Of a DNA stretch of 64,000 nt, positions 19,727-38,464 are shown in pieces. The translations under genes were made by a program, and so were the position numbers. The number at the start of each line of letters is the position of its first letter. Position 1 is the first letter of the stretch. The DNA is from Candidatus Spongiisociaceae bacterium (lineage in GTDB: Bacteria > Actinomycetota > Acidimicrobiia > Spongiisociales > Spongiisociaceae): contig CBDCOH010000002.1 of assembly GCA_965219685.1 (NCBI GenBank), positions 2,400,001-2,464,000 on the forward strand, in the 5' to 3' direction. Below the pieces are notes generated by a model that was not told where the DNA came from, searched no databases, and saw nothing but the letters and a program-made list of their open reading frames with translations.

Positions 19727-20362
19727 CTACCTCCTCCTCAACACGAGGTCACCCTTCTGAACCGCCGCGTAGTCAGGCACGCGGCTCGTCCCCATGGAAT
19801 AGCCCCGCATGCCGGCTCTCAGAAACCTCTGCGCCCGTACCACGCCACGAGCGGGCGCGCCGGGATCTCTCAGCAGGAACTTGCTGAACGGAACGCAGGG
19901 GTTGAGAACATCGGGAGGATCCAGTTCCAGTTCTCCGCCAGAGGTGCGGATGACAAAGCCTTTGGAGACATCCTCGTGATACAAGCGCTCCTCGGTGTCG
20001 ACGACGATGTTCTCACCCGCCGCGCCCAAGGGAGCCCATCCGAACTCGCCCTCGATCAGCTTGTAGTGCCTCGTGAAGCCGATGCTCAGGATCCGGCGAG
20101 GACGATGCTCGTGCACCTCCGCGGGATGCCCCGAGTGATGGCGATCGAGCACCCAGCCGCCGTCGACCTCGGCGATGACCCCGGCCCTACCTACCTTCAA
20201 GGACTCCACCGGGATCAACGAGGTGGTCCTGTAGACCTTGCCCTCGTGGGTGACCACGTTGAGCTTCTGCTTCTGGATCTGGAGAAGGACCACCAGCCCG
20301 ACCGGGACCAGCCGACTATCCGGGGTCGGGTCCGCTTCCGGACCCTCGGTTACGTTGCTCAA
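19727..20362 (-). CDS. MOSC-like domain protein
   Basis: GAAGENIVV, LNPC, GMRGY, VQKGDLV resemble MOSC motifs; TTGA overlap with the opine dehydrogenase stop. Confidence 0.55.
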   Translation of the reverse strand: MSNVTEGPEADPTPDSRLVPVGLVVLLQIQKQKLNVVTHEGKVYRTTSLIPVESLKVGRAGVIAEVDGGWVLDRHHSGHPAEVHEHRPRRILSIGFTRHYKLIEGEFGWAPLGAAGENIVVDTEERLYHEDVSKGFVIRTSGGELELDPPDVLNPCVPFSKFLLRDPGAPARGVVRAQRFLRAGMRGYSMGTSRVPDYAAVQKGDLVLRRR

Positions 20363-21429: not shown

Positions 21430-24161
21430 ACGTCCACCATAACTTTCAGGAGGGTCGAGGCATCGTGCACCGTTTCCAGCCTGTCGACCAGATCCAGAAC
21501 CTCCGCGACCCGACCCCGGGAACCGGCAGGCAAGGCGGCCTCCAACGAGACTCGCCGGCTCGCGCGATATGTCGGCAGGACCGAGAGCCCCCCTTGAAGT
21601 CTCTCAACCCGGCCGGAACTCGTGGTCACCGTCACCCTGGCGGAATATGGATCGTCGAAGTGCCGGTAGTTAAGTCTTACACCCGCCGGCAGAGGCGACC
21701 TCGCGGCGGCCGAACCCGGCCCCATAACCACTTCTGCCGGTTGCCTCCCCTCCATCAGCCGCGCGACCTTCAGGCGCAGCACGTCGGCCTGGGACATCCG
21801 GCGATCGAAGCCCGGGAGGCTGCACCGGGCGGAGGCGTCCCAGCGCCTGCGAATCTCGGGGAGCGAGACCTCCGCCGCAACGGGTCTCTCCTTCTCGGTC
21901 GCCAGCATGGCCGACAAGCGGCCGGCCAGTTCGATGGGGACGAGGTGGTTGTGATCGACGGAGTGCCGGCTGACGATGGCCTCGTCGAGTCCGAACCTGG
22001 CGCCCAGTCGCGACAGCGCCTCGTCCAGGCCTGCCGGAACCGAACCCAGAGTCGACCTGTACAAGCCGAACTCACCCTCGATCATCAGGTCGGCGGCCGG
22101 GAACCCCGCCTCGGCGAGGAGCGCAGCGAAGACACCGTTGCGAGCCAGTTGTGCATTGACGACTGCTTCCTCCTCGACTCCCTCGATCAGTCCCATGGTC
22201 AGGTGACAGGCCTGTCCCATGGCGTCGGCTGTGAGTTTCTCGTCCAGTCCGAGCAGGCGGGCCGCCATACAGGCAACCGCTACTGGCCCGAACACGCAAT
22301 CAGCCCGGCGGGCCGTCGCGGTCCCCCACGCCCAGGTGCCGGCGGACAGCGCGAGGGCGACGTCGTAGCCGATGGCGATGGCCACCAGCAGTTCCCTCCC
22401 CGGGACGTTCCGGTCCTCGCTCAGTGCCAGCGCGACTGGAATGGTCATGGCCCCCGGACGGAGACCCCCGGCCATACTGTCCTGCCAACCCCGGGCCTGC
22501 ATGCTCAGCGAATTCGCAAACACCGCGTCCAGGAGGCGGAGAGTGGGACGCTGGCCTATGAAGGAATACCTGCCGGGTCTCCCGGTCCGTGGATCAGCCG
22601 CGGACGACCGACCCTGCAACGCCAGCGCGAGATGGTGGACGAGTAGATCCTTGCCCCGGTCAATGACCGCAGGAGGGAAATCCCGGTACCTGGCTCCGGC
22701 CGTGTAGGCGGCTATCCGCTGGGAAGCCGTCCGGCCCGGGACACGATCAAGACCCCAGAAGACCCCTGGCGCCGGATCGGCTCGGGTGGCGAACCGGTCA
22801 AGCGCAGTCCACAGGCCGGCGGCACCGTGCGACTCCTCGAGCCCCTCAACCGAGGTCACCAGGTGTTCGATCGCGGGCGAAGGGGCTGCCGGGAGGAGAT
22901 CGGCCAACCATTCCCTGTGGTCCATGGGAGGGGTCGGGGAAGCGGCATGACTCTCCCGGACATGCCGCCGGCCGTTGGTGGTGACAACCGTTAGGCGAGC
23001 CGAGCGTAGAGGCAACCCGTGCACGTAGTCCAAGGATGTCCGATCGACCAGATCCAGGAATCCCGCGGGCATGTCCTCGCGGTACCGGGCCGGATTCAGT
23101 TCCCCATCCCACAGCCACGCGGCCACCAGGAACCGGGGAGACGCGTAACGGCTGATATACCGGCGTTCACCGGCGTCCCGGTACCGGCGGAAGTTGCGGT
23201 CGAAGTCCTCCTCGCGAGGCCGACGCTCTTCGGGAAGCGTGAGGTGGATCAAGGCGACGTCGGGCACGGTTATCCCAGTGGTCCGGATCAGGTCGTCCAT
23301 CAACTCGACCGGCACGACGTTGAAACCGCTGCACCGGTAACGCTTCCGGAATGCGTGCGAGATCCCGAAGTCCGTTCCCAACCCGTCCATTGCCGAGACG
23401 ACCTCTCCGGGAACCTCTCCCAGGTAGGTCTCGTACAGACCGAAAGGACCCTCGAGAATCGATGGAGTGGATCGGACCCCGGCCGAAGCCAGCAGAGCAG
23501 CCTCAACCCCGTTGCGCGTGATCTGCGGATAGAGGACCCGAGCGAACGGAGTCCCCTCGATGAGGCCGACCGCACCGTTGGCCGCCAGTCCCAGCGCGTG
23601 AGCCGTCCGATCCGCACCGAACCCCAGTAGGCGCGACGCTACCGCCGCCACGCCCACCGGACCCACCACGCAACCGGAACGGCGGGGCGTGCTAACCCCC
23701 CAGGTCCAGGTGCCCCGGGCAAGGGCCACAAGGAGGTCATACCCGACCGCCACGGCTGACAGAAACTCCCGACCGGTGATGGGTCTCGTCTCGGCGAGCG
23801 CCAGGACGGTGGGGAAGACCAGCACGCCCGGGTGGGTGCCCCCCAGGGCCGCGTCGTCCAACGCATCCTCGCCCATGAGCAACGAATTGACGAACACCGC
23901 CTCGAGCAACCCGTACCTGCCCCTTGCGCCCAGAACCCTGTGTCGCCCCCCTCCATCCGATAGCCTTCCGGCCAGAGACCGTGCCCTCCCCGCGCTCGGG
24001 TTTCCGGTGGCGGCCAGAGCAAGACCGACATGGTGCACCAGGTGATCCTTGGCGAGCCCGACCACGTCGGGGGGGATCGCCTCGAACGGGAGTCCCGACA
24101 CGTGGCTCGCCAACCTTCGGGTTAGAGAGACGGCTGGTTCACCGGCGGTCGGCATCGACAT
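21420..24161 (-). CDS. Tandem double-domain MmgE/PrpD protein
   Basis: Two full repeats (AKDHLVHHVGL...THPG...LEGPFGLY; GKDLLVHHLAL...LRPG...IEGEFGLY); start ATG 24161 or 24155. Confidence 0.85.
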   Translation of the reverse strand: MSMPTAGEPAVSLTRRLASHVSGLPFEAIPPDVVGLAKDHLVHHVGLALAATGNPSAGRARSLAGRLSDGGGRHRVLGARGRYGLLEAVFVNSLLMGEDALDDAALGGTHPGVLVFPTVLALAETRPITGREFLSAVAVGYDLLVALARGTWTWGVSTPRRSGCVVGPVGVAAVASRLLGFGADRTAHALGLAANGAVGLIEGTPFARVLYPQITRNGVEAALLASAGVRSTPSILEGPFGLYETYLGEVPGEVVSAMDGLGTDFGISHAFRKRYRCSGFNVVPVELMDDLIRTTGITVPDVALIHLTLPEERRPREEDFDRNFRRYRDAGERRYISRYASPRFLVAAWLWDGELNPARYREDMPAGFLDLVDRTSLDYVHGLPLRSARLTVVTTNGRRHVRESHAASPTPPMDHREWLADLLPAAPSPAIEHLVTSVEGLEESHGAAGLWTALDRFATRADPAPGVFWGLDRVPGRTASQRIAAYTAGARYRDFPPAVIDRGKDLLVHHLALALQGRSSAADPRTGRPGRYSFIGQRPTLRLLDAVFANSLSMQARGWQDSMAGGLRPGAMTIPVALALSEDRNVPGRELLVAIAIGYDVALALSAGTWAWGTATARRADCVFGPVAVACMAARLLGLDEKLTADAMGQACHLTMGLIEGVEEEAVVNAQLARNGVFAALLAEAGFPAADLMIEGEFGLYRSTLGSVPAGLDEALSRLGARFGLDEAIVSRHSVDHNHLVPIELAGRLSAMLATEKERPVAAEVSLPEIRRRWDASARCSLPGFDRRMSQADVLRLKVARLMEGRQPAEVVMGPGSAAARSPLPAGVRLNYRHFDDPYSARVTVTTSSGRVERLQGGLSVLPTYRASRRVSLEAALPAGSRGRVAEVLDLVDRLETVHDASTLLKVMVDVCG

Positions 24162-24189
24162 CGGACTACGATATCGGTTGCCGAGATCA
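24156..24189. promoter_or_regulatory. CGATATCG-N5 operator array, site 5
   Basis: CGACATCG gacta CGATATCG gttgc CGAGATCA between divergent MmgE genes. Confidence 0.8.
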
Positions 24190-24237
24190 CGGTCAATCGA
24201 CCCGAGTCGTCGCCATCGGCAAGGAGGCCGGCCAAGC

Positions 24238-25584
24238 ATGCCCTCAAGCGGTCCATCGGTAAGCGAGAGACTGGCCCGCCATGTCGTCTCGCTGCGTTTC
24301 GATGATCTGCCCACCGAGATCGTGGAACGCGCCAAGGACCACCTGGTGCACCATGTGGGTCTCGGAATACAGGGCCGGAACAGTGAGTACGGGAAGAAGG
24401 CGCGCCGAAACGCGGCCCGGCTCAGCGCGACCGGCGGGCGGTTCTCGGCCATCGGCGAGAAGCCGGCCCTAGGACTGCTCGACGCGGTGTTCGTGAACTG
24501 CCTCTACATGCACCACAGCGGCCAGGACGATTCGGAGTCTGCCGGCACCCATCCCGGGGTCCTCGTGTACCCGGCGGCTCTGAACCTCTCGCAGGACCGC
24601 ACCGTCAGCGGGAAGGAGTTCCTGGTGGCTTGCGTGATCGGCTACGACGTGTCGATGGTCCTGAGCGCCGGAACTTGGGCATGGACCGCCCCCGCGCCCA
24701 GGAGAAGCAATGCGATCTTCGGGCCGGTCGCGGTCGCCGCCACCGCCGCCCGCCTGCTCGGCCTTTCCGAGTCACAGACCGTGGATGCGCTGGGCCAGGC
24801 CTGCCATGGAGCGCTGGGTCTGATCGAAGGAACCCGGTTCATATGGGTGGTGTATCCGTGGGAGTGCCGGGCGGGAGTGTTCGCCGCCACCCTCGCCGAG
24901 TCGGGCCTCCGGGCCGCGCCGAGCATGATCGAAGGCGACTTCGGCCTTTACCGGACGCTGCTCCAGGAGGTCCCGTCCGGCATCGACGAGAACCTCGCCA
25001 CTCTGGGCTCCTACTTCCGCATCGTGGAAGCGCGAGTCAAGAAGTACAGCGCCAGCAACCTGAACGCTGGCATCCTCGACGCGACGAAGAGGGTGTGCGA
25101 GGCGAAGTCGATCCGGCCGGAGCATGTGGAGTCGATCCTGATCGAACTGCCCGACAGCCGCAGGATACGGGAGAAGCGCATGGAGGAGAACTTCTCCAGG
25201 TACGTGGATCTCGCCTCGCGGTGCGGCTCGCTGCGCTTCCTGACGGCGTTGATCCTCCGCGACGGCGACCTCGACAGCCGGATCTACACCGACCCCATCC
25301 CCGAGGACCTCCGGGCGCTGATCGACTCGATCTCCCTGCGCTTCCTGGACGAGGCACCGTCCAATTACTACGGGAGGGTCACCATACGGACCACCGACGG
25401 CGGGGCGGAAAGGGTCGAGTACGGGCGCGACGGCGTCGACTATCCGGAAGTGGACCGGGAGGGATGGATGTCCAGGTGCGTGGGCGACGATCCCTCGGTC
25501 GACGTTGATCGTCTCCTGCAGATCGTCAGCGAACTGGAGCAGCTACCCGACGCATCGGTCCTCCTCGAAGCCCTCTCGGGCTGA
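24238..25584 (+). CDS. MmgE/PrpD family protein (3)
   Basis: AKDHLVHHVGL, DAVFVN, GTHPG, IEGDFGLY; AGGAGG RBS. Confidence 0.88.
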   Translation: MPSSGPSVSERLARHVVSLRFDDLPTEIVERAKDHLVHHVGLGIQGRNSEYGKKARRNAARLSATGGRFSAIGEKPALGLLDAVFVNCLYMHHSGQDDSESAGTHPGVLVYPAALNLSQDRTVSGKEFLVACVIGYDVSMVLSAGTWAWTAPAPRRSNAIFGPVAVAATAARLLGLSESQTVDALGQACHGALGLIEGTRFIWVVYPWECRAGVFAATLAESGLRAAPSMIEGDFGLYRTLLQEVPSGIDENLATLGSYFRIVEARVKKYSASNLNAGILDATKRVCEAKSIRPEHVESILIELPDSRRIREKRMEENFSRYVDLASRCGSLRFLTALILRDGDLDSRIYTDPIPEDLRALIDSISLRFLDEAPSNYYGRVTIRTTDGGAERVEYGRDGVDYPEVDREGWMSRCVGDDPSVDVDRLLQIVSELEQLPDASVLLEALSG

Positions 25585-27649: not shown

Positions 27650-28918
27650 CTACCTGCGGTCGAGGATCCGGAAGCGGGAAGGGCGGAAGGGGGCCATGTC
27701 CACGGATGGATCCTCGTTCGATACGAGTTGGCCGATGATCTCGCCGGTGATCGCGGCCAGGGTGAACCCGATGTGGCCGTGGCCGTAGGCGAGGAAGACG
27801 TTGGCATGGCGGGGCGCCCGGCCGATGACCGGAAGGGAGTCGGGGTGCGACGGGCGGTAGCTCATCCATCTCCTCGCCCCGTCCGTCCGCAACTCAGGAA
27901 ACACCAGCCTGGTGGCCTCGATCAGGCGGTCGGCGCGCCGGTAGTCGGGCGGGGCTTCGAGTCCGGCCAACTCGTCGGTGCCGGCCAGGCGGAGGCCGTC
28001 GGGAAGGGGGGTCATCGCGAAGTGATGGTCCATCGAGACGATGGGAAAGGGGAGTTCGACCCCCGGATGCGGCAGGTCAACCCCGTAACCGCGCTCCGTG
28101 TCGAGGGGGGTCGCGAAGCCGAGCATCCTCGTGAGGTGCTTGGACCAGGCCCCGGCAGCGATCACCACCAGGTCGGCGGGAAGCGCCCCGCTCGTCGTCT
28201 CGACGGCGACTATCCGATCTCCCGACCGGACGAACCCCGAGACCTCCCCCGCCACGCGACGACCCCCCGCGGCGACCATGCGGTCCGTAAGCACCGTGCA
28301 CAGTCGTAGCGGGTCGGCCCAAGGGGCCTTGGGAATGTAGACGCCGTGGCTGAAACGGCCCGCCAGCACCTCGGACAGTCCCGCCACTCCGTCCGCGTCA
28401 AGGACCCGCATGTCGATGCCCCGCCTCCGCCTCGTCTCGATGGCGAAGGCCGCCTTGGCGAACACCGCGTCGGTCCCATAACCCAGTAGATGCCCGCCTT
28501 CGATGAGAGCGCCGCCGGAGTCATGCACGGGTAGCACCTCCTCCCACGCCCGGAGTGCCTGCTTGACCAGACGAGCGAGCGCGATGGAGGCGCGCTCGAC
28601 ACGCGCCGGCCTCGCCGAGGCGATGAACCGAAGCAGCCATGGCACCATCCGCGGTAGGTAGCGCCACCGGATCGCGAGGGGTGAGTACGGGTCGAGCAGC
28701 ATCCGGGGCACCGACCGGATGACCCCGGGAGTCGCCGTCGGGAGGCAGTTTCCCACCGAGAACAGACCGGCGTTGTGACCTGAGGCTCCGTCGCCGGGAG
28801 CGCCCCTGTCCACGACGGTCACCTCGTAGCCACGCCGGAGCAGATGCATCGCGCAGCAGAGTCCCACCGTTCCACCGCCTACTACGACAGCAAGCCTTGG
28901 ATCCCCGGACGATGTCAT
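27650..28918 (-). CDS. FAD-dependent D-amino acid dehydrogenase (DadA/DAO family)
   Basis: VVGGGTVG, ASGHNAG, ERGY, RPSHPDSLPVIG, GHGHIGFT. Confidence 0.9.
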   Translation of the reverse strand: MTSSGDPRLAVVVGGGTVGLCCAMHLLRRGYEVTVVDRGAPGDGASGHNAGLFSVGNCLPTATPGVIRSVPRMLLDPYSPLAIRWRYLPRMVPWLLRFIASARPARVERASIALARLVKQALRAWEEVLPVHDSGGALIEGGHLLGYGTDAVFAKAAFAIETRRRRGIDMRVLDADGVAGLSEVLAGRFSHGVYIPKAPWADPLRLCTVLTDRMVAAGGRRVAGEVSGFVRSGDRIVAVETTSGALPADLVVIAAGAWSKHLTRMLGFATPLDTERGYGVDLPHPGVELPFPIVSMDHHFAMTPLPDGLRLAGTDELAGLEAPPDYRRADRLIEATRLVFPELRTDGARRWMSYRPSHPDSLPVIGRAPRHANVFLAYGHGHIGFTLAAITGEIIGQLVSNEDPSVDMAPFRPSRFRILDRR

Positions 28919-28926
28919 CGGCCCTC

Positions 28927-28960
28927 CGATATTGGGATGCGATATCGAACTTCGAGCATT
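28927..28960. promoter_or_regulatory. CGATATCG-N5 operator array, site 6
   Basis: CGATATTG ggatg CGATATCG aactt CGAGCATT in a divergent gap. Confidence 0.78.
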
Positions 28961-29000
28961 ATGGTACGTCCCGACCGAGGCACGGTGGATCGGAGGATCT

Positions 29001-30134
29001 ATGGGTTCCGGGTTCTCCCCCAAAGAGTTCTATGGGGGCATGGCGAACAGCCTCGCCATGCAGGTGGCACGGGACGAGGTGGCATGGACGGATCGCCACC
29101 GGACGCCCGACGGCCCCGTGGACACGCTGCTCGCGTTCGGATGCGCCGTCCAGCACACACCGCACCTGATGCGCGCCGCAACGAGGGTCTTCGACGTGCT
29201 CGGGATCGAGCACCGGGCAGTCGCCGGGCGCCAGTACTGCTGCGGCCGGCCCTTCCGGCGGACCGGGAAGGTCAAGGCCGCCGACAACATAGTGGCCAGT
29301 TCCTACGCACGCTTCGCGTCCTACCGTCCGCAAACGATGGTGCAGTGGTGCGGGGCGTGCATGATCACCTATATCGACGTCGCCAGCCGCCGCATGACCA
29401 CCCCGTTCGAGGTGATCCACGTCTCCACTTACATGGCCCGTGTGCTGCGCGAGCGGGCGGGCAGCCTCCCGTGGCGGGAGACCGACCGGCTAACCGTCCT
29501 CGTCCACCGCCATGTCCAGCCCAAGGTCCCCAACGATCGCTCATCCGAACACCGCGGAAAGCCGGGCCGTGACCAGGTCACCGACGCCACGATCGAGGCG
29601 GTCGACGAGATCCTCTCGCGCATCCCGGGAGTCGAGAACCTGGGGGTCGTCGAACCGCCATCGAGCGGCGCTCCCTGTGATCTCAAGAAGGTCAACGACC
29701 GGTTCGTGGGCTTGGGTGATATCAGTTCCGACGCCCATCGGGCGATCCTTGGGCATCTGGCGGAGCAGGCCGATCGCACCGGGGCAGAGATCGTCGTGAC
29801 CCCTTACCACGCCTGCCAGAAGCAATGGTCCAAGCTGGCGAGCCACAAGCTGGGCGTGCGCCACTGGATGTCCGTACTCGCCGATGCCCTCGGGGTCGGC
29901 GTCGAGGACCGCTACCAGGCCTACTGGCGCCTGGCCGATCCGGAGGCCATCGTGAAGTCATCCAGCCCCGCTTGGAGTTCGTGGGGGATCAGTTCCGAAG
30001 ATGCCTACGAGCACGCTCGGACCCACTTCACCGCAGCCTTCTCGGACAGCATCCACGACTGCGAGTGCGGCGGCTCAGGCTGCGGAGCGCCCACTCCGGA
30101 GTTGGTCTGGCCACTGGTAAGCGGAGCCCGTTAG
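29001..30134 (+). CDS. Stand-alone CCG-domain (HdrB/GlpC-related) Fe-S protein (1)
   Basis: FGCAVQHTPHL, YCCGRPF, WCGAC, PYHAC, C-terminal CECGGSGC. Confidence 0.7.
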   Translation: MGSGFSPKEFYGGMANSLAMQVARDEVAWTDRHRTPDGPVDTLLAFGCAVQHTPHLMRAATRVFDVLGIEHRAVAGRQYCCGRPFRRTGKVKAADNIVASSYARFASYRPQTMVQWCGACMITYIDVASRRMTTPFEVIHVSTYMARVLRERAGSLPWRETDRLTVLVHRHVQPKVPNDRSSEHRGKPGRDQVTDATIEAVDEILSRIPGVENLGVVEPPSSGAPCDLKKVNDRFVGLGDISSDAHRAILGHLAEQADRTGAEIVVTPYHACQKQWSKLASHKLGVRHWMSVLADALGVGVEDRYQAYWRLADPEAIVKSSSPAWSSWGISSEDAYEHARTHFTAAFSDSIHDCECGGSGCGAPTPELVWPLVSGAR

Positions 30135-30151
30135 GCCCTACACGGTAGGTT

Positions 30152-31366
30152 TCAGACCAGGTCGAGGACGGGGAGTTCCATACCGGCCTCCAAGGTGGCC
30201 TTCCAGGAGGTGTCGCAAGCCGCCCCTGCTCCGGCGGAGCGCGCACCGGCGACCGCCTCGACGCAGTTGCCCTCGCAGGGACAGCGCTGGACCCGGGACG
30301 CGTACTCGGGCATGAAGTGATGCTTCACGATGTGTCGAGCCTCCTTCTCATCCATCCCCCACGACTCCCAGTGGCGCCTCGTCTGCTCGAAGATCATGTC
30401 CGGATCCCCCAGCTTCCAGAGGGTCTGGAACCGGTCGGGAATCCTGATCCCCAGCGCTTCTGCGAGCAGCGACTGGTAGTGGAGAACGGGAAGACGGTCG
30501 CTCCCGAACTTGCACCACTCCCGGTGACACATGTGGTGGTGGGTCAGGATGGCATCGGCCCCGACCGCATCGGCCTGGGCCTGAAGATCCTGCTGGACTT
30601 CCAGGTATTGCTCCGGGGTGATGTCGTTGAGAACGCTTGGTTCTCCCGGACCCTTGGTCGCGCACGGCTGGCCGAGTGCGGGACTCTCCACGATACCCAC
30701 GTACTCGATCCCCGGGATCAACTCGAGCGTCCTGATCACCGCCGACTTGGCTGCTTCCTTGGTGGGATGGACCTCGGCGCCCTCGGCATGGAGCATCACC
30801 CGGCGGGGTATGGACTTGCGCCACGGTATGCCGTCGCCCATCTCGACCAGGAGGTCGGCCAGGTAGTCCGTTATATGGATCACCTCGAAAGGGGCCTGGC
30901 CGCGCTGGTCCGAGATGACCTTCACGTGGTAGTCGAACTCGATGAGGCACGAACCGCAGCACTGCACGTTGACCTCCGGCTGCCACGAAGCGAACCTGTC
31001 GATGGCCCGCGCCGCCATCGCGTCGCCGACTTGGCCCTTGCCGAAGCGTTGGAAGGGCCTGCCGCAGCAGTACTTGTTACCGGCTACCGCGACGAAGTCG
31101 ACCCGGAGCGCCTCGAACAGGGCGACCTGGGTGAGCATCAGGTGCGGCGTGTTCTGGACGCCGCAACTCAGGTTCAGGACCACCTCCGCCCCTTCGGCCG
31201 GTTTCGAGTACCGCTCCAGCCAGGTGACCTCGTCTCGCGAGATCTGGAGGCGTTCCGAGTTGAGGTGATCACGATAGAAGCGGGTGAAGCTGAACTCCTT
31301 GGCCCGCGAGAGATCGAAGTCCTCCCCTGCCGCGTTCTTCGTGACCATCCGGTCGTCAACCACCAT
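30152..31366 (-). CDS. Stand-alone CCG-domain Fe-S protein (2)
   Basis: LSCGVQNTPHL, YCCGRPF, CCGSC, HHMC, CPCEGNC. Confidence 0.7.
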   Translation of the reverse strand: MVVDDRMVTKNAAGEDFDLSRAKEFSFTRFYRDHLNSERLQISRDEVTWLERYSKPAEGAEVVLNLSCGVQNTPHLMLTQVALFEALRVDFVAVAGNKYCCGRPFQRFGKGQVGDAMAARAIDRFASWQPEVNVQCCGSCLIEFDYHVKVISDQRGQAPFEVIHITDYLADLLVEMGDGIPWRKSIPRRVMLHAEGAEVHPTKEAAKSAVIRTLELIPGIEYVGIVESPALGQPCATKGPGEPSVLNDITPEQYLEVQQDLQAQADAVGADAILTHHHMCHREWCKFGSDRLPVLHYQSLLAEALGIRIPDRFQTLWKLGDPDMIFEQTRRHWESWGMDEKEARHIVKHHFMPEYASRVQRCPCEGNCVEAVAGARSAGAGAACDTSWKATLEAGMELPVLDLV

Positions 31367-31426
31367 CGATCCGTTCCTTTTCGTCTCGCTTCAATCTAGT
31401 AGGGAGCTCGCTCCGACGCCCGGCCA

Positions 31427-32407
31427 TCAGCGGGGCGCCGGGCCCTTCGAGAGCTGCTCCAAACCCCTGCGTATGGCCGCACGCTCCGCACTGGCGCCGA
31501 CCCTTCCCAGCGCCAGGCCGTGCCGTTCCCGCACCAACTCGATCCGCTCGTCCAATGGAAGCAACGGGCAGTTCTGACACAGCCGACCCCGGCGATCGTC
31601 CAACCGGTAGGTGAGACAGCACGCATGGCGGCGGTGGATGCCGTGGGGGAACATCGGGTCGTCGATCTCATCCCACACCACGAGGCCTCGCAGGGGGTTG
31701 GGTCCCGGTACCCCCGGTATGGCCGGAGCGCCCAGCAGGGCTCGGCGGTCCTCCACGTAGGGTCGGCCGGCCCCGCCTAGGTACTCGTCGGCCGAGTCCG
31801 AGACCATCCCCACCCATTCGGCCGCGTTGGTCCACAGCAGACGTTCCGAGACCCGCGTCAGGCTCCGGACAACCTCGAAGAAGGGCGCCAGGTGCCGGCC
31901 GTACAGGGTCTCCCAGGCATGCGCCCTGACCTCGGCCAGAGTTGCAGCGGCTTGGGCGTCCACCTTCCACGGCGTGAGCCGCTCGCCGGTCACCACTGCT
32001 CCCTCTCCGAGATCGTCCAGCACCAGTGCGAACGGGAGGGACACACGGGTGAGGATCCTGCAATGGCGCGGCGAAAGGTCCAGGGCCACTCCGTTGGCCA
32101 GGGCACATAATGCCGCAACGGTTAGGCAACCGGTGTAATGGCGGGTCAGCCGTGAGACGGCGATCCGCAGATCGATGTCCACCTCTGAGCGGTCATCCAG
32201 ATGATCCGCCGGATCCGCGAACAGCAACTCGCGGTCCACCGTATGGGACGCGGCGATCGCCCGTCGCAGGAAGTCCGGTTCGAAGTAGCGAGTGGCCGGA
32301 ACGGCCTCTGGAGACGCCGGGTCGTCGAGTAGGTAACGCCCCTCGAACCAACGCCCGAGCCGTCCGATGCCGTCCGCCAGGGACCGCTTCCAATCCTCGG
32401 TCGGCAT
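31427..32407 (-). CDS. FhuF-like (2Fe-2S) ferric-chelate reductase domain protein
   Basis: ERLLWTNAA and C-terminal RRHACCLTYR...LCQNCP (CC-x-C-x2-C); ATGA overlap with the chrA stop. Confidence 0.75.
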   Translation of the reverse strand: MPTEDWKRSLADGIGRLGRWFEGRYLLDDPASPEAVPATRYFEPDFLRRAIAASHTVDRELLFADPADHLDDRSEVDIDLRIAVSRLTRHYTGCLTVAALCALANGVALDLSPRHCRILTRVSLPFALVLDDLGEGAVVTGERLTPWKVDAQAAATLAEVRAHAWETLYGRHLAPFFEVVRSLTRVSERLLWTNAAEWVGMVSDSADEYLGGAGRPYVEDRRALLGAPAIPGVPGPNPLRGLVVWDEIDDPMFPHGIHRRHACCLTYRLDDRRGRLCQNCPLLPLDERIELVRERHGLALGRVGASAERAAIRRGLEQLSKGPAPR

Positions 32408-33654
32408 CAGAGCGTAGCGAGCAGGCCACCGCCGGCCGCGGTCAGGATGACGACCAGCCAAGGGGGAAGTTTCCAGAAAGCCAGGAGCCCCAGCGCGACG
32501 AGCGCGAGCCCGAAGTCCTCGGGACCGAGGATGGCGCTCGACCAGAGAGGATCGTACAGGGCGGCCAGCAGGACCCCCACCACTGCTGCGTTGACCCCGC
32601 GCAGGACTGCCTGCACCTCGGGGCGTGCGCGGAGGGCCCCGAAGGTGGGGAGGGTGGCGACCACTATGAGGAAGGAGGGCAGGAAGATGGCCAGGAGGGC
32701 CAGGAGAGCACCACCGACCCCGTTCGGCTCGGTACCAAGGGAGGCGCCGAGATAGGCCGAGAACGTGAATATGGGCCCCGGCACAGCTTGGGCCGCACCG
32801 AATCCGGCGATGAAGGTCTCATCGTCGACCCAACCCGGTCCGACCACCTCGCTCTCGAGCAAGGGCAGGACGACAGGGCCTCCGCCGAACACCAGTGCCC
32901 CGGAACCGTAGAAGGCGTCAGCCGTCCCGATGGCCGGAGCGTCGAACGCCGCCCTGGCCACCGGCAGCAGGGCCAACAGCGCGAAGAACAGGACCGCGCT
33001 GACAATCGCAGCCCGGCGTCCTGATCCGAGTTGGTACGAGCGGGCAGCAGCGGCTTCCCGGCGCAGGAAGAACCAGCCCACGATCCCGCCCAGGATGATG
33101 ACGACCACGATCGTGGTCCGCGCCGACGAGGGAAAGGCGATCACCGCCAGCGTTGCCAGGACCGCCATCGAACTGCGGAACCGGTCCGGCGCCAGCTGGC
33201 GCCACAGCTTCCACACCGCCAGGCCGACCACGGGAACGGCCACCACCACCAGCCCGTGGATCCACCCGGCCGCCTCCTCGGTGAGACGCGAAGCCGTCAG
33301 GCCCAGCACCGTCATGATCACGGCCGAGGGCAAGGTGAACCCGAGCCAGGCGATGACCCCGCCCCACAGACCACCCCGAGCCATCCCGATGGCCATGCCC
33401 AGCTTGCTGCTACCGGCGCCCGGGAACGCCTGCGAGAGGGCAACGAGGTCGGCGAAGGTCTCCTCATCGACCCAGCGGCGCCGCTGGACGTACTCGTCCT
33501 GGAAGTAGCCGATGTGGGCGATTGGGCCACCGAAGGAGGTGAGCCCGAGGCGCAGAGCCACCCAGAAGATCTCGACCAGCGGCCCTCGTTCCGGGATGAA
33601 AGTAGCCGGGGCAGGGCCGGCGTGGTGGTCGTTCGGGTTGCTATCGTCCGTCAC
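32407..33654 (-). CDS. chrA: Long-chain chromate efflux transporter, copy 2
   Basis: LGLTSFGGPIAHIGYF, FGGGPVVLPLL, AQAVPGPIF; visibly close paralog of 3510..4754. Confidence 0.92.
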   Translation of the reverse strand: MTDDSNPNDHHAGPAPATFIPERGPLVEIFWVALRLGLTSFGGPIAHIGYFQDEYVQRRRWVDEETFADLVALSQAFPGAGSSKLGMAIGMARGGLWGGVIAWLGFTLPSAVIMTVLGLTASRLTEEAAGWIHGLVVVAVPVVGLAVWKLWRQLAPDRFRSSMAVLATLAVIAFPSSARTTIVVVIILGGIVGWFFLRREAAAARSYQLGSGRRAAIVSAVLFFALLALLPVARAAFDAPAIGTADAFYGSGALVFGGGPVVLPLLESEVVGPGWVDDETFIAGFGAAQAVPGPIFTFSAYLGASLGTEPNGVGGALLALLAIFLPSFLIVVATLPTFGALRARPEVQAVLRGVNAAVVGVLLAALYDPLWSSAILGPEDFGLALVALGLLAFWKLPPWLVVILTAAGGGLLATL

Positions 33655-33682
33655 CGGTATCCCCTAGTCATGCATCGCGGGC

Positions 33683-33703
33683 CAATATCGGGCTACGATA
33701 CCA
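33683..33703. promoter_or_regulatory. CGATATCG-N5 operator array, site 7
   Basis: CAATATCG ggcta CGATACCA between divergent chrA and padR. Confidence 0.72.
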
Positions 33704-33752
33704 GGCATCCGAATGGCGAACCGCGACGGACCAGCGACGAACAGGCGGCCAG

Positions 33753-34130
33753 ATGAGCAGGACCGACCGAATCGAGGGCCATCCCACCTTCGAGGCCCAT
33801 AGCAGGCTCTTCCGCGACATCCTGCTGGGTTTCGTTAGGGTGCATGTGCTCCACTGCGCCAGTAGAGGTCCCGTCTACGGGGTGGCGCTCAACGAGGAAC
33901 TCGCGGTCCACGGCTACAACCTGTCGCCGGGAACCCTCTATCCACTCCTCCACGGACTCGAGGACATCGGGTTTCTCGAGCGGACTCCGGAAGTCGTCGG
34001 CGGCAAGGTACGGAAGTACTACTCGCTGACCGACCGGGGACACCAGGCGCTTGAGGATCTCCGTTACAAGATTCGCGAGTTGGTCAGCGATGTGCTGGAT
34101 GGCGAGACCGTACCGGCGGGCTCCCGGTAG
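33753..34130 (+). CDS. PadR-family transcriptional regulator
   Basis: LGFVRVHVLH, VYG...EEL..HGYNLSPGTLYPLLH.LE, RKYYSLT..G. Confidence 0.92.
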   Translation: MSRTDRIEGHPTFEAHSRLFRDILLGFVRVHVLHCASRGPVYGVALNEELAVHGYNLSPGTLYPLLHGLEDIGFLERTPEVVGGKVRKYYSLTDRGHQALEDLRYKIRELVSDVLDGETVPAGSR

Positions 34131-34193
34131 CCCTACCGGACCGGGGCAGCGCCCGATGGGGAGCGGTCGGCTTCCCGAACGCCGGAGTCTCCT

Positions 34194-35132
34194 ATGAGGA
34201 TCGGGCTGATGGCATCGATCTCTGCTGCCGGCGAGCCGACCCTCGAGAACATCACGGCAACCATCGTCCGGGCTGAAGCAACCGGGTTCGACACCGTTTG
34301 GACTTCGGGACGGATGGACGCCCTGACGCAACTGGCTCTCGCCTCGGTACGCACTAACCGTGTCGAGCTTGGCACGGCCATCGTGCCCACCTATCCCCGC
34401 CATCCGCACGCCTTGGTCCAGCAGGCCCTGACAGTCCAGATCGCCTGCGGCGGCAGACTGGCGCTCGGCGTTGGGGTGAGCCATGACACTTCGATGTCAT
34501 CCCTTGGTTTCGACTGGTCTGCGCCGGTCCGCCACGCCCGCGAGTACCTGAGCGGTCTGAATGGGTTGCTGGCAGGAGCGGAGGTTACGTTCGAAGGGAC
34601 CGACTTCTCCCTCTCGAATGCAACCGCGCCGCTCGCCCACCTGACGGCCGTCCCCCCGGTTCTCCTGGCTGCGCTGGGTCCGCAGATGCTGCGGGTGGCC
34701 GGAACGCTTTCCGACGGGACCGTCCTCTGGCTCAGCGGCGCGCGCTATGTGAGAACGGTGGCGGTGCCGGAGATCGCGGCCGCGGCGAAACGAGCCGGCA
34801 AACCCCCGCCGCGGGTGGTGGCAGGAGGTCCGGTGTGCGTGACCGACGATGCGAAGGCATCCTACGAACGCGCCGAACGCGTCCTGCACGCCATCGGGAA
34901 CAGGCCGGTCTACCGGTCGGTACTGGACCTCGACGGTTCGGCCAGCCCGGCCCAGGTAGCCCTGATCGGCGACGAAGCCCTCGTCGGTGAACGTCTTGAC
35001 GAGTTGGCCGAGGCAGGCGCCACCGACTTCGCCGCCCAGATCCTCGCCGCCTCTCCCGAGGAGTACGAGCGGACCCATGCCTTCCTGGCGGGCCGCGCCG
35101 GGACTGGTCACCGTGCCGGCACGGGTCGGTGA
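34194..35132 (+). CDS. LLM-class (F420-dependent-like) oxidoreductase
   Basis: ELGTAIVPTYPRHP, RLALGVGVSH, LAALGPQMLRVAG. Confidence 0.88.
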   Translation: MRIGLMASISAAGEPTLENITATIVRAEATGFDTVWTSGRMDALTQLALASVRTNRVELGTAIVPTYPRHPHALVQQALTVQIACGGRLALGVGVSHDTSMSSLGFDWSAPVRHAREYLSGLNGLLAGAEVTFEGTDFSLSNATAPLAHLTAVPPVLLAALGPQMLRVAGTLSDGTVLWLSGARYVRTVAVPEIAAAAKRAGKPPPRVVAGGPVCVTDDAKASYERAERVLHAIGNRPVYRSVLDLDGSASPAQVALIGDEALVGERLDELAEAGATDFAAQILAASPEEYERTHAFLAGRAGTGHRAGTGR

Positions 35133-35139
35133 CAGCTGC

Positions 35140-35160
35140 CGATATCGGGCTACGATAACG
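35140..35160. promoter_or_regulatory. CGATATCG-N5 operator array, site 8
   Basis: CGATATCG ggcta CGATAACG upstream of the membrane protein gene. Confidence 0.8.
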
Positions 35161-35202
35161 GTTGGACGGCAGTCAAGGTGAGAGAAAGCGAGGAGGCCGG
35201 TT

Positions 35203-35616
35203 GTGGATTGGGATCTGTTCGTGGTGCATTGGCTTCACGTCGCCTTCGGGATCTTCTGGGCCGGGTCGATCGCGTTCACGAGGGTGACCCTGTTCCCGGC
35301 CCTGGCCACGCTTCCCAAGGAACAGGCAGTGGCGGCGAGGAACACCCTGTTGACGGGGAATGCGAAGCGGATCACGTTGATCACGGCCGCCGGGACGGTG
35401 ACAACCGGGATCCTGCGGGGCCTCATGACCGGTGTATTGGATCAGTTGGACACGTCCTACGGATGGATCTACATACTGTCGGGCGTCATCGCGATCCTGA
35501 TGTTCCTCTTCCTGCTCGACTGGTCACCCAAACCGGCCGTCCTACGGCACATCTACCTCGCAGCCTTTCCGGTGCTCTTCACGATGATGGTGCTGATGCG
35601 TTTCGGAGGGTTCTAG
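35203..35616 (+). CDS. Four-TM membrane protein (CopD/DUF2269-like N-terminus)
   Basis: HWLHVAFGIFWAG, TTGILRG; GAGGAGG RBS. Confidence 0.65.
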   Translation: MDWDLFVVHWLHVAFGIFWAGSIAFTRVTLFPALATLPKEQAVAARNTLLTGNAKRITLITAAGTVTTGILRGLMTGVLDQLDTSYGWIYILSGVIAILMFLFLLDWSPKPAVLRHIYLAAFPVLFTMMVLMRFGGF

Positions 35617-36854
35617 GAGGCTGGTGGCCGGTCGAGCGTTTCCTCCTCCACCCGGCCGGCCATCAGGCACAAGGGGAGGGCGACCGCCGACGCTACCAAG
35701 AAGCCGAGCGACAGGAATGTCACCGTACCGTCATAGGCGCGGTCGATCAGCGATCCCAGTAGCGCCCCTCCTCCGGTCGATGTTGCCCCGATGATCGACC
35801 CGGCGGTTCCTGCCTGCCCGGCCATCGGATCGAGGGCCAGGCTGTTCAGGTTGGCGACAACCAGGCCGTGCATGGCGGCGAGCACCGATAGACATACCAG
35901 GAAAAGTGCGAACGTCGGCCTTCCCTCCCCTACCCAGGTTGCGGTCGTCAATGTGAGCGCGGCCGCCAAGTAGATCACGAGGATCCCGACAACCACCCGC
36001 TCGGTCGTAAGCGTCTCGACCAACGCCGCGTTGGCGATCATGGCCGTGGCCATGATCGCGGTAATCCCCCCGTATATCCAGGGGAACTGCTGGGCGCGAC
36101 CGAAGATGTCGGAGAAGATCAGTTCGGAACTCGCCATGTACGAGAAGAAGGCGCCGAAGCTGAACGCCATAGCGACCGTGTAGAAGACCGTGTTGCGGTT
36201 GCGGAGAACCCGCAGGACGGAATTGCCTAGACGGGACACCGACCACCCGACGGCTGGCCGGACCGCCCGCGTCTCGCCGAGCCGGGTCGCCCAAACAGCC
36301 ACCACCGCCGCGAGCCCCACGGCCAACCAGAACACTCCGTGCCAGGAGGTGACATCCGCGATGGTGGCGCCCGCAACGGGAGCGAAGACAGGAACGATGG
36401 TGAAGACGGCGAACACCGACGACATGATCCTCGCCAGGCGATCCCCGTCGAACAGGTCCCTCACGATGGCCAGCGCCACGATCCGGGGCCCGGCCGCCCC
36501 CACACCCCAGAGAGCCTGAGTCGCCAGGAGCAGCGAGAGAGAACCTACGCTCCCCGCGAGTACCGACCCGGCAGCCCCGAGCGCATAGATCGAGAAGCCG
36601 ATCCTCAGCGCCGGCTTCCTCCCCAAAGCATCCGACAACGGCCCGTAGACCAGCCCGCCGACGGACAGACCGACGATGTAGGCCGTGATCGCCCCTGCGA
36701 GGCGGTTCGAGTCCTCGGCCAGCCCGAGAACCTGGCGCATCTCCCCGAACGCAGGCAGGATGAGCCCCACGAGCGCTGAAAGCGCCATCGCAGAGGACAG
36801 GAGCACGATCAGTTCCCCTTCGCGCATGCTCCTTGCGGGTGGGGTCAGGGTCAC
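35613..36854 (-). CDS. Bcr/CflA-family MFS efflux transporter
   Basis: YGPLSDALGRKP, AIVRDLFDG, APVAG, AGTAGS. Confidence 0.88.
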   Translation of the reverse strand: MTLTPPARSMREGELIVLLSSAMALSALVGLILPAFGEMRQVLGLAEDSNRLAGAITAYIVGLSVGGLVYGPLSDALGRKPALRIGFSIYALGAAGSVLAGSVGSLSLLLATQALWGVGAAGPRIVALAIVRDLFDGDRLARIMSSVFAVFTIVPVFAPVAGATIADVTSWHGVFWLAVGLAAVVAVWATRLGETRAVRPAVGWSVSRLGNSVLRVLRNRNTVFYTVAMAFSFGAFFSYMASSELIFSDIFGRAQQFPWIYGGITAIMATAMIANAALVETLTTERVVVGILVIYLAAALTLTTATWVGEGRPTFALFLVCLSVLAAMHGLVVANLNSLALDPMAGQAGTAGSIIGATSTGGGALLGSLIDRAYDGTVTFLSLGFLVASAVALPLCLMAGRVEEETLDRPPAS

Positions 36855-36921
36855 GGCTCCTCCCGGCGGTCCGTCGCCAGAAGGCGGGGCACTCAGGCCT
36901 GGCCAGGATGACCGTTTCAGG

Positions 36922-36942
36922 CGAAGTCGGCTACCGATATCG
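36922..36942. promoter_or_regulatory. CGATATCG-N5 operator array, site 9
   Basis: CGAAGTCG gctac CGATATCG followed by TAATAT, in a divergent gap. Confidence 0.7.
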
Positions 36943-36979
36943 GATAATATAAGGGTGGCCTGCCGGATGGAGAGACCTC

Positions 36980-38077
36980 GTGATCGACAAGACGAAGTTC
37001 GATGTAAAGGGCTACTACACGGCCATGGCCGAGAGCAAGTCGCTTCTGATCGCCCGCGACGACCTCAAGTGGACCGAGCGGTGGGTGGAGCCCGACCGTC
37101 CCTACGACGCACTGCTCGCCTACGGTTGCGCGGTCCAGCATACGCCACACCTGATGCAGGAGGCCGCCAACGTCCTCGACGTGCTGGGCGTCGACTACTT
37201 CGCGGTCACCGGCCGACAGTTCTGCTGCGGCCGGCCGTTCGAGAAGATGGGCAAGGACGGCGCGGTCGCCGACCGCATCTCCGACAAGTCCTACCGGCGG
37301 TTCATGTCCTACCGCCCCAAAGTCGCGGTGCAGTGGTGCGGCGCCTGCATGCGCCAATACCTCGACACGATCAGCGCCCAGCAGGATCCCCCGTTCGCGG
37401 TGGTCCACGTCACCAAGTTCCTTGCCGACCTGCTCGAGGCGAGAGCCGCCGAGGTCCCCTGGGTTAGAGAGGTGAAGACGCGGGTCCTGCTGGAGGCCCA
37501 CCACGACCATGCCCAAGCCGACATAGACACCGCCTCGATTCTCCGCATCTTCGAGATGGTTCCCGGTGTCGACTTCGCCGGGTTCGTCGAGCCGCCGTCC
37601 GCCGGCACCCCGTGCGACCTCGAGGGTCCCAAGGCTGTGGGGGTACTCAACAAGGTCGACACCGAGACCTTCCAGCGCGCCATCACGGAACTGGAGGACC
37701 AGTTGGAGAAGGCAGGGGCAGACACCTTGGTGACCCCCTACCACAAGTGCCAGATGGAGTGGTCGAAGCTCTCCACGAAGAAGCTGGCTATCCGCGAGTG
37801 GATCTCACTGGTTGCGGAAGCGATGGGGGTGGGCGTCCAGGACCGCTACACCATGTACTGGCATCTGGGCGATCCCGAGAGAATCGCCGAGGAGGCTCGG
37901 CCGCAGTGGGAGACCTGGGGCTGGTCCGAGGAGCAGGCGATCGAGGCCGCCCGGCGGCACTTTGTTCCAGAATACGCTATCGACGTGCACCACTGCGACT
38001 GCGGCGGCAGCGGCTGCGGGAGCGAGGGAGCCGACCTGCTCTGGCCGGGACTCGTCGACGTGGCCTCCCTAGTCTGA
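36980..38077 (+). CDS. Stand-alone CCG-domain Fe-S protein (3)
   Basis: YGCAVQHTPHL, FCCGRPF, WCGAC, PYHKC, CDCGGSGC. Confidence 0.7.
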   Translation: MIDKTKFDVKGYYTAMAESKSLLIARDDLKWTERWVEPDRPYDALLAYGCAVQHTPHLMQEAANVLDVLGVDYFAVTGRQFCCGRPFEKMGKDGAVADRISDKSYRRFMSYRPKVAVQWCGACMRQYLDTISAQQDPPFAVVHVTKFLADLLEARAAEVPWVREVKTRVLLEAHHDHAQADIDTASILRIFEMVPGVDFAGFVEPPSAGTPCDLEGPKAVGVLNKVDTETFQRAITELEDQLEKAGADTLVTPYHKCQMEWSKLSTKKLAIREWISLVAEAMGVGVQDRYTMYWHLGDPERIAEEARPQWETWGWSEEQAIEAARRHFVPEYAIDVHHCDCGGSGCGSEGADLLWPGLVDVASLV

Positions 38078-38105: not shown

Positions 38106-38464
38106 TCACAGCCGCACCGAGGGCAGCCGCCTCAACTCGCGGTTGACGGGATCGACATGGATTCCAGCAGACTCCAGCGCAGTGGCGCCCAACAGCGGCT
38201 CGGAGTGGGGTTTGCCGAAGATCACGGTCGCGCCGACCGTCTCTCCCATGATCTCGAACTCGGCAACCGTGACATCGAACCGGACTCTGTACCGTCGGCA
38301 AGCTCGTACCCGCGAGTGCTCCGTGGCGTCAGGCCTATGGATTCGAGCCACGGTCCGGGAACCGACGAGTCGATGGCTCCCGTGTCGACCAGAAACCGAC
38401 CTCGCCACTCCTGCTCCGGCGCGCCAGGATTCCGTACGATGATGTTTGCGTAGGTCATGCCCAT
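38106..38464 (-). pseudogene. Clan AA aspartic protease (AF_0612-like), frameshifted
   Basis: MGMTYA...LVDTGA...YELADGT in one frame continues RVRFDV...EPLLGATALES in another; one base missing near 38289. Confidence 0.8.

Follow-up and report, generated by a model that had tools for sequence, protein, structure and literature searches.

Stand-alone CCG-domain proteins with a cysteine-rich tail and a shared operator-like motif in a gene island of an uncultured member of the Acidimicrobiia

Introduction

Heterodisulfide reductase owes its unusual noncubane [4Fe-4S] clusters to CCG domains, which in EtfD also hold a linear [3Fe-4S] cluster; little is known of the range that this chemistry has reached. 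A 64,000-nucleotide stretch of the genome of Candidatus Spongiisociaceae bacterium (assembly GCA_965219685.1, contig CBDCOH010000002.1, positions 2,400,001 to 2,464,000; hereafter the window) encodes three paralogous CCG-domain proteins that end in a cysteine-rich tail. What could three such proteins do within a single locus, each in a different gene company? A sequence-only reading of the window had seen in them an uncharacterised reductase or metal-handling family and a possible signature gene of the system encoded there. We demonstrate that they belong to a CCG subfamily with one canonical and one altered site, and that an operator-like DNA motif accompanies its tail-bearing kind. A role in electron transfer is the reading that we tentatively favour and weigh against its rivals.

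Results

The Three Paralogs and Their Fold

The genes in question, with positions counted along the window, are as follows.

29001..30134, plus strand: CCG paralog 1 (copy 1), 377 amino acids, clade I (clade support 100/99); Pfam CCG, E-value 7.2e-10
30152..31366, minus strand: CCG paralog 2 (copy 2), 404 amino acids, clade III (clade support 100/97); Pfam CCG, E-value 1.8e-7
36980..38077, plus strand: CCG paralog 3 (copy 3), 365 amino acids, clade I; Pfam CCG, E-value 2.7e-9; the protein used for modelling

All three open reading frames (ORFs) are present and paralogous, as had been proposed. In a three-way alignment, and compared with copy 1 across the full length, copy 2 is 37% and copy 3 46% identical. 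Their GC content by codon position, with 0.81–0.87 at third positions in all three, supports coding sequence. Copy 1 starts with the ATG at 29001, downstream of a GGAGGA box, copy 2 with the ATG at 31366 on the minus strand, and copy 3 with the GTG at 36980. A profile of the three proteins revealed no fourth copy among the six-frame ORFs of at least 60 amino acids in the whole window.

The motifs noticed by the first reading, C-x-VQ(H/N)TPHLM, (Y/F)CCGRPF, CG(A/S)C and PC...HxC, are aligned in all three copies, and each protein ends in a tail of the pattern CxCxG(x1-2)C (CECGGSGC, CPCEGNC and CDCGGSGC). Pfam recognised a single CCG domain (PF02754) per protein, confined to the N-terminal half and scoring above the gathering cut-off of 20.6 bits (39.3, 31.6 and 37.4 bits for copies 1–3), and no other domain. 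The ferredoxin domain (Fer4) that had been reported missing from the N-terminus was not detected by Pfam on any of the three proteins, and the ferredoxin motif CxxCxxCxxxC is absent from all window ORFs of at least 50 amino acids. No transmembrane segment was predicted in the three proteins.

In the numbering of copy 3, used throughout, the first lobe (lobe 1) reads C50-x31-C82C83G84-x36-C120-x2-C123 and conforms to CXnCCGXmCXXC, the CCG motif as defined in the excerpted text of PMC2754724. Its CCG residues are invariant in a 43-sequence family alignment; among 173 relatives, C50, C82 and C83 are kept in 172–173, C120 in 170 and C123 in 169. Most likely, lobe 1 would hold a noncubane-type [4Fe-4S] cluster.

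The AlphaFold (AF2) model of copy 3 (predicted local distance difference test, pLDDT, 88.6; predicted template modelling score, pTM, 0.88) consists of two strand–helix lobes of like pattern, with strands 42–47, 73–76 and 113–118 in the first and 167–172, 197–203 and 249–252 in the second, followed by a helical region (274–328). The tail is unresolved in the model, with pLDDT falling from 57 to 32 across residues 331–365, and is predicted to be disordered or flexible. In the register of secondary structure, the counterparts of the three lobe 1 ligand positions in lobe 2 are (H/E)172-x-H174, C212 and H255-x-C257. The division into two lobes is based on the secondary structure of the model together with the fold matches. 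An internal repeat at the level of sequence was rejected: hhalign of lobe 1 against lobe 2 gave a short match pairing C123 with C257 and G121 with H255, not significant overall (probability 1.35%).

The second domain had been described as degenerate. It is true that its CCG ligands are replaced, but what replaces them is conserved, so that lobe 2 is not simply degenerate: it keeps an (H/E)xH...C...HxC site. Among 60 tail-bearing stand-alone sequences, H/E172 was found in 60, H174 in 54, C212 in 59, H255 in 55 and C257 in 60; for 62 tail-less stand-alone sequences the respective counts are 59, 53, 59, 50 and 57, and the site is also common to ferredoxin-fused relatives. Lobe 2 would probably hold a different, smaller metal or Fe–S centre, and H255 may in addition complete the lobe 1 cluster, like a histidine in EtfD.

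When the model was compared with the Protein Data Bank (PDB) by Foldseek, EtfD was the best match (9ojn, E-value 2.6e-8), followed by the LutA model 9a6l_A (2.3e-6) and several HdrB chains, among them 5odc_B (8.5e-6 over 317 columns). HdrB, with which the first reading had proposed a structural comparison, was thus matched, and EtfD and LutA were matched better. By sequence profile the PDB matches were weak and to HdrB chains only (E-values 0.0012–0.19, the best being HdrB2 9sfi_C at 0.0012); a profile of just the three window sequences gave 0 matches at E ≤ 1. By every sequence and fold test applied, the family belongs to the CCG-domain superfamily, and the three window proteins are most likely soluble, two-lobed Fe–S proteins of the CCG (HdrB/LutA/EtfD-type) fold.

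Comparison with Known CCG Systems

The CCG part of mycobacterial EtfD, the best structural match, likewise combines one canonical and one altered CCG domain. According to the excerpted text of PMC13083937, EtfD ligates a linear [3Fe-4S] cluster by four Cys and a noncubane [4Fe-4S] cluster by five Cys and a His of the other domain, its CCG pair carries electrons from a flavoprotein system, and further parts of the protein are five transmembrane helices, heme b and two cubane [4Fe-4S] domains. GlpC, TcuB and DgcB-type Fe–S partners of flavoenzymes can be grouped with it by extension. On that description, altered CCG ligand sets still bind clusters. Unlike EtfD, the window proteins are without transmembrane helices, heme b and cubane domains, and the order of the canonical and the altered domain is reversed. 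As a candidate for a transmembrane heme-b partner of the EtfD/HdrD type we considered a conserved, co-regulated four-helix membrane protein (35203–35616), which gave neither a family nor a fold match.

HdrB (5odc_B, 9sfi_C), the catalytic subunit of heterodisulfide reductase, shares with the window proteins the stand-alone two-lobed CCG fold, free of a ferredoxin domain, and the CXnCCGXmCXXC motif of lobe 1. In contrast to them, it has two complete CCG motifs for two noncubane clusters, where lobe 2 here has (H/E)xH, a single Cys and HxC, and it works with HdrC and HdrA. The window proteins add the C-terminal helical region and the Cys tail, and their setting is catabolic, with genes for a DAO-family flavoprotein, a luciferase-like protein and respiratory complexes. 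Partner domains of HdrA or HdrC were found neither by Pfam on 56 window ORFs nor by the ferredoxin motif in ORFs of at least 50 amino acids.

LutA (YkgE) of the LutABC lactate-utilisation system is, like them, a small soluble stand-alone CCG protein of aerobes (9a6l_A, template modelling score 0.66 on the target), but it comprises 238 residues in 9a6l_A, as against 365–404 amino acids in the window, has two CCG domains and acts with LutB and LutC. Neither LutB nor the LUD domain of LutC was found among the scanned window ORFs. Proteins of the GlpC/GlcF/TfrB/LdhH type differ by their N-terminal 2x[4Fe-4S] ferredoxin domain, absent here, and the NCBIfam GlpC model scored 28.7 bits against a cut-off of 278. 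SdhE of the type E succinate:quinone reductase is, in the excerpted text of PMC2754724, a stand-alone CCG subunit with two CCG motifs on a flavoprotein/Fe–S dehydrogenase; the window copies stand alone as well, but have one CCG motif and no SdhA/B genes beside them.

These systems provide the model for the role that we propose. The window proteins may be Fe–S electron-transfer partners of the redox enzyme of each gene module, a reading that seems to us a real possibility, a little short of probable. The CCG protein would accept electrons from the DAO flavoprotein, or pass electrons on to the FhuF-like 2Fe-2S reductase encoded next to copy 2, much as GlpC, TcuB, LutA and the CCG part of EtfD serve their flavoenzymes. 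TcuB, for example, is given in the excerpted text of PMC10468695 as the FADH2:quinone oxidoreductase partner of TcuA.

The Family and Its DNA-Binding Relatives

A word-based search yielded 56 relatives, nearly all from metagenomes and mostly bearing generic names such as 'Fe-S oxidoreductase' and 'heterodisulfide reductase-related'; with copy 3 as the query, P0034, which equals copy 1 over the tree columns, was retrieved at E = 6.5e-105. Searched exhaustively with a profile, 1.84 billion representatives gave 2414 matches at E ≤ 0.001, 635 at 1e-10 and 138 at 1e-30. The window proteins reached 15–29 bits against curated NCBIfam models with cut-offs of 278–800, and other family members tested likewise stayed below. 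Since no curated family model reaches its cut-off, we regard the proteins as an uncharacterised CCG subfamily, which agrees with the first reading.

The architecture census comprised the 173 sequences of at least 280 amino acids among 205 collected proteins: 60 are stand-alone with a tail, 62 stand-alone without it, 39 have an N-terminal ferredoxin domain and 12 a long N-terminal extension. The extension is an XRE-type helix-turn-helix (HTH) domain (HTH_31/HTH_3, Pfam) in 9 of the 10 checked proteins with about 85–95 additional amino acids, and in P0090. Pfam also found an HTH on a fused gene of locus L013 (about 6061–7614). The XRE-fused proteins are that of L013 (6061–7614), P0068–P0071, P0073, P0075, P0076, P0078–P0080 and P0090; P0073 (779 amino acids, EamA + HTH + CCG body) may represent a merged gene call. 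A family-alignment search among proteins of 708–2020 amino acids showed no fusions, which is weak evidence. In a search of the open-access literature, neither the XRE fusion nor the His/Cys site of lobe 2 nor the operator motif presented below was found described; among the matches listed, nothing linked PF02754 with FhuF, CHR or PrpD, and no HTH–CCG regulator appeared.

In a tree with ferredoxin-fused forms as the outgroup, tail-less forms diverge first, and a clade of 73 of the 88 rows contains nearly all tail-bearing proteins (Shimodaira–Hasegawa-like approximate likelihood ratio test, SH-aLRT, 100). The flexible CxCxG(x1-2)C tail, not covered by the Pfam model, is an addition specific to this one clade. 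The 11 XRE HTH-fused proteins form a single clade inside the tail-bearing clade and thus a group of single origin. A 48-row tree resolved four groups at no less than 100/97: clade I (copies 1 and 3), clade II, clade III (copy 2) and the HTH clade (100/99, five representatives).

The nested HTH clade raises a different reading, not considered by the first reading, in which the family members are sensors or co-regulators: the cluster would read redox state, iron or a ligand and control the regulon of the CGATATCG motif, e.g., via a PadR-type repressor, with the XRE fusions as the one-component version. We consider it unlikely. The three window proteins have no DNA-binding domain (no N-terminal HTH_31/HTH_3 by Pfam), and the lobe 2 site, strong in the stand-alone forms, is decayed in the HTH clade, where H255 is changed to Q in 10 of 12 sequences and C212 and C257 are each kept in 9 and lost jointly in 3; the HTH-fused protein of L013 (L013_5956), read by eye, has the same pattern of decay. 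This suggests that lobe 2 of the stand-alone forms serves something that the DNA-binding relatives appear no longer to need. Moreover, three paralogs in this genome stretch and six in a Jatrophihabitans metagenome-assembled genome (MAG) are more typical of enzymes.

In the same HTH clade the lobe 1 motif is kept in 12 of 12 sequences and the tail CxC in 9 of 12 by column. The tail CxC is retained in members that have lost C212 and C257 (3 of 12, plus L013_5956), so the function of the tail appears, from these sequences, to be linked with the lobe 1 cluster and not with the lobe 2 site. A self-contained, cluster-driven thiol/disulfide reductase could be envisaged on this basis: the noncubane cluster of lobe 1 would reduce a disulfide of the tail CxC...C, and the tail would pass the equivalents on to a substrate or partner, e.g., the FhuF-like protein, a ferric chelate or an imported disulfide. 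The chemistry of ferredoxin:thioredoxin reductase is comparable, and swinging-arm C-terminal tails occur in high-Mr thioredoxin reductase and MerA. The predicted flexibility of the tail fits this idea, and so does a gamma-glutamyl transpeptidase gene that follows the family gene in locus L011. Noncubane clusters of HdrB cleave a disulfide according to the excerpted text of PMC13083937, but the same text presents the equivalent EtfD clusters as shielded and non-catalytic. The redox activity of the tail is itself a prediction, and since both lobes are kept in 62 tail-less sequences, the core function does not require the tail. Altogether, we find this reading improbable.

A Shared Bipartite Motif

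A palindromic box, CGATATCG, recurs in intergenic regions of the window with a 13-bp period, sometimes as three boxes. The search for CGATATCG-N5-CGATATCG with up to three mismatches gave 17 sites in the window, against 0.41 expected and a maximum of 2 in 100 shuffles. They span positions 5340–48621 (about 5 to 49 kb), e.g., 5340, 11707, 12602, 17001, 24156 and 28927, and further 33683, 35140, 36922, 41285, 43796, 46153 and 48601. The sites next to the genes treated here are listed below.

28927..28947, no strand: motif site CGATATTG-N5-CGATATCG between the starts of the DAO gene and paralog 1; one mismatch; its end lies 54 bp before the start of paralog 1
33683..33703, no strand: motif site between the chrA string that leads to paralog 2 and the PadR gene, about 50 bp upstream of the latter; three mismatches
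35140..35160, no strand: motif site ahead of the small membrane protein gene; one mismatch
36922..36942, no strand: motif site in the gap between the MFS gene and paralog 3; two mismatches; its end lies 38 bp before the start of paralog 3

Other window sites precede Opp genes, PrpD genes, a pair of thiamine pyrophosphate (TPP) enzyme and acyl-CoA dehydrogenase genes, AcnX and Ldh_2.

The compared loci were divided into 20 of the tail-bearing kind (L001–L018, L050 and L052) and 38 of the other kind. L052 adjoins L017 on the same contig, and its copy is split and apparently tail-less (the profile match ends at position 328). The family gene appears as two overlapping ORFs both there (9986–10363/10305–11000) and in L049 (9944–10735/10633–11010), through a frameshift or an assembly error.

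The 20 loci contain 98 motif sites in 320 kb, as against 0 in the 632 kb of the 38 others. Five of these (L021, L033, L040, L046 and L054), with tail-less copies, are from Actinomycetota by their record titles. At least one site occurs in 21 of 21 tail-bearing-kind sources (the window and the 20 loci), drawn from Actinomycetota and Chloroflexota. With gene starts taken from our own ORF calls, the end of a site lies within about 100 bp upstream of the family gene start in 15 of the 21 sources. The CGATATCG-N5-CGATATCG motif is operator-like and a signal of co-regulation of the modules, and it lends support, beyond what the first reading could draw on, to the suggestion that the family is a signature gene of the system.

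The position of the sites so close to the family genes is also what sensors or co-regulators would lead one to expect. In L013, the XRE-fused gene is flanked by SdhA/B-like genes and an MFS gene, and two genes away is a stand-alone copy preceded at 53 bp by a motif site. Family genes also often stand divergent to transporter operons and close to regulators of the PadR, AsnC, MarR and RpiR types. The PadR protein of the window (33753–34130) is a candidate binder of the shared motif; PadR homologues were found in 7 of 58 loci.

Gene Modules around the Three Copies

The electron-transfer role that we favour depends in part on the neighbours of the three copies, which are the following.

27650..29023, minus strand: DAO-family flavin adenine dinucleotide (FAD) oxidoreductase, divergent from paralog 1; Pfam DAO, 4e-63
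31427..32404, minus strand: FhuF-like protein, 326 amino acids (P0206), next gene upstream of paralog 2 and co-oriented with it; Pfam FhuF, 2.9e-9
32407..33654, minus strand: chromate-transporter-family (CHR) membrane protein, first in the chrA–fhuF-like–CCG2 string; Pfam Chromate_transp, 4.7e-73
33753..34130, plus strand: PadR-family regulator; Pfam PadR, 1.4e-18
34194..35132, plus strand: luciferase-like monooxygenase family protein; Pfam Bac_luciferase, 1.3e-45
35203..35616, plus strand: small four-helix membrane protein, no Pfam match; found alongside CCG genes in 9 of 59 sources
35613..36854, minus strand: MFS transporter, divergent from paralog 3; Pfam MFS_1, 2.4e-30

We read them as three modules within one co-regulated island: the DAO flavoprotein with CCG1, the CHR transporter and FhuF-like protein with CCG2, and the MFS transporter with CCG3. 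The best NCBIfam match of the DAO protein is D-amino acid dehydrogenase (205 bits, under the cut-off of 383), and its likely true start, judged by eye, is the ATG at 28918. In the second module, which ends with copy 2, all genes point the same way and are separated by 2 and 60 bp. The FhuF-like protein scored 53.8 bits with TIGR03951, under the cut-off of 63.85, and the cysteines of its C-terminal CC-x12-C-x2-C motif are invariant or nearly so in 54 homologues. Upstream of copy 3 and the MFS gene lie the genes of the PadR regulator, the luciferase-like protein and the small membrane protein. The last has an invariant W-L-H-V motif; its model (pLDDT 82.9, from only 8 sequences) gave no Foldseek match at E ≤ 1, the best being Dcytb at 1.5.

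Between copy 3 and a DapD-like gene we noticed two short overlapping ORFs (38106–38464, minus strand), one with the motif VDTGA, which on visual inspection resembles that of an aspartic protease of the retropepsin type, perhaps with a frameshift.

The first reading had seen no HdrA/C or GlpAB partner genes nearby. The absence of partners holds for HdrA/HdrC and LutB/C, but the DAO gene beside copy 1 and the FhuF-like gene upstream of copy 2 are adjacent candidates, and to speak of no partner is therefore too strong.

Neighbourhoods in Other Genomes

Lineages were tallied by hand and amount to about 10 independent ones; the neighbour scan covered the loci other than L039, L040 and one L052 ORF. 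The recurrent neighbours of the family genes are:

Opp-type ABC importer: about 7 of about 10 lineages
CHR transporter: about 6 of about 10 lineages
FhuF-like protein, PrpD and DAO: about 4 of about 10 lineages each

Further neighbours are Ldh_2, aminotransferases, arginase-family enzymes, Rieske oxygenases and amidases. Such neighbours suggest that nitrogen-containing organic acids or chelator-like compounds are taken up and broken down. The window, L006, L008, L016 and L052 each have a DAO flavoprotein gene adjoining a family member, and a FhuF-like protein is encoded in the locus of the family gene in the window lineage and in L006, L010, L014 and L015. In L010 and L012 the family member is co-oriented with an Opp-type ABC importer, and SdhA/B-like genes are near family genes in L013 and L015 only. 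Acyl-CoA dehydrogenase, counted as a neighbour in 35 of 59 sources, was rejected as an artefact: single-linkage clustering had caught antisense shadow ORFs overlapping the CCG gene.

In another Acidimicrobiia MAG, orthologues of the three copies lie on three contigs (L003, L008 and L015), each with its own module, so the modules are separable. A clade III copy adjoins a copy of clade I or II in the window, where its partner is copy 1 of clade I, and in L010 (8791–9903/9926–11086, in tandem with a 22-bp gap) and L017 (7977–9200/9965–11074), where it is of clade II. Such pairing could reflect a hetero-oligomer; the separability of the modules argues against this as the rule.

The transporters in particular bear on a metal-handling role, also considered by the first reading, in which the tail and/or the lobe 2 site would bind a metal from an imported chelate and hand it on, together with an Opp/Nik-type importer, the FhuF-like ferric reductase and CHR. 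The lineage counts of the Opp-type, CHR and FhuF-like neighbours speak for it. CxC...C tails and HxH motifs are typical soft-metal ligands, and the PrpD, DAO, luciferase-like and Opp-type families, all present in the island, include degraders of aminopolycarboxylate chelators. However, it is the Fe–S CCG motif, and not the tail, that is invariant in the proteins, and we found neither a metal-dependent regulator nor a known metallochaperone partner. We regard metal handling as very unlikely.

The proposal of Fe–S electron-transfer partners draws on the CCG fold, the conserved lobe 2 site, the DAO and FhuF-like neighbours and the shared motif. Several points weigh against it. No ferredoxin-type relay (HdrC, LutB) is encoded in the window, and every characterised stand-alone CCG protein has such a relay, as far as we are aware. 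The flavoprotein and FhuF-like neighbours each occur in only about 4 of the lineages, and copy 3 is without an obvious adjacent redox enzyme, the luciferase-like protein being three genes off. The fusion of a sister clade to a DNA-binding domain fits a sensor at least as well, and both cofactor binding and partner contact of the CCG proteins are predictions.

The Wider Island

The modules belong to a paralog-rich uptake and catabolism island (window 3510–51925, Pfam), with the following repeated families.

5242, 21420 (double), 24049 and 43831: MmgE/PrpD genes
25505, 45348 and 47679 among the positions given: four Asp/Glu-racemase-family genes
3510 and 32407, and 26445/26950 for the split pair: CHR transporters, three full-length and a split pair
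48632, 49725 and 50804: three Ldh_2 genes

The island also comprises an Opp-type ABC importer, AcnX, an octopine-dehydrogenase-family gene, a 2-oxoacid dehydrogenase E1/E2 set, a TPP enzyme, an acyl-CoA dehydrogenase and an aminotransferase, and the window encodes respiratory-complex genes as well. The ORF at 21420–24452 (minus strand, 1010 amino acids) has two PrpD_N stretches, the result of a tandem fusion or of read-through across two genes; the motif site at 24156 lies inside its 5′ end as called, and its true start is therefore probably further downstream. The octopine/nopaline-dehydrogenase-family gene (20359–21603, minus strand) adjoins an ORF of 218 amino acids (19727–20383, minus strand) with a weak MOSC match below the cut-off (E-value 0.0036), both beside the Opp-type importer. 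Over the whole window, Rfam and ARAGORN gave only a tRNA-Thr (CGT; 1528–1601, minus strand), and with only a tRNA in the Rfam content there is no riboswitch hint to the substrate. The tRNA gene overlaps the 5′ end of a sigma-70-like ORF (842–1564, as called).

Discussion

The roles considered, in electron transfer, sensing, tail-driven reduction and metal handling, are not mutually exclusive; PutA, for one, combines enzyme and repressor roles. Sensing and the tail would be united if the tail-bearing CCG proteins were the signalling core of a two-phylum regulon, in which a noncubane-type Fe–S cluster, coupled to the flexible CxC...C tail as a redox or ligand switch, would govern expression from the CGATATCG-N5-CGATATCG operators. 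The stand-alone forms would then act via a partner repressor and the XRE-fused relatives directly. We think this rather doubtful, on a par with the tail reductase. If it were true, the CCG cluster would be a new kind of sensor module of transcription factors. If the proteins are ordinary electron carriers of flavoproteins, in line with the role that we favour, the result would be a useful annotation and not a surprise.

The subfamily offers a scaffold that is small, soluble and stand-alone and comes from organisms with neighbouring genes of aerobic appearance. One canonical site beside a conserved His/Cys site, a clade-specific Cys tail and a natural fusion to a DNA-binding domain make it an object of study, and the operator-like motif provides an experimental handle on a paralog-rich island in uncultured Acidimicrobiia, other Actinomycetota and Chloroflexota.

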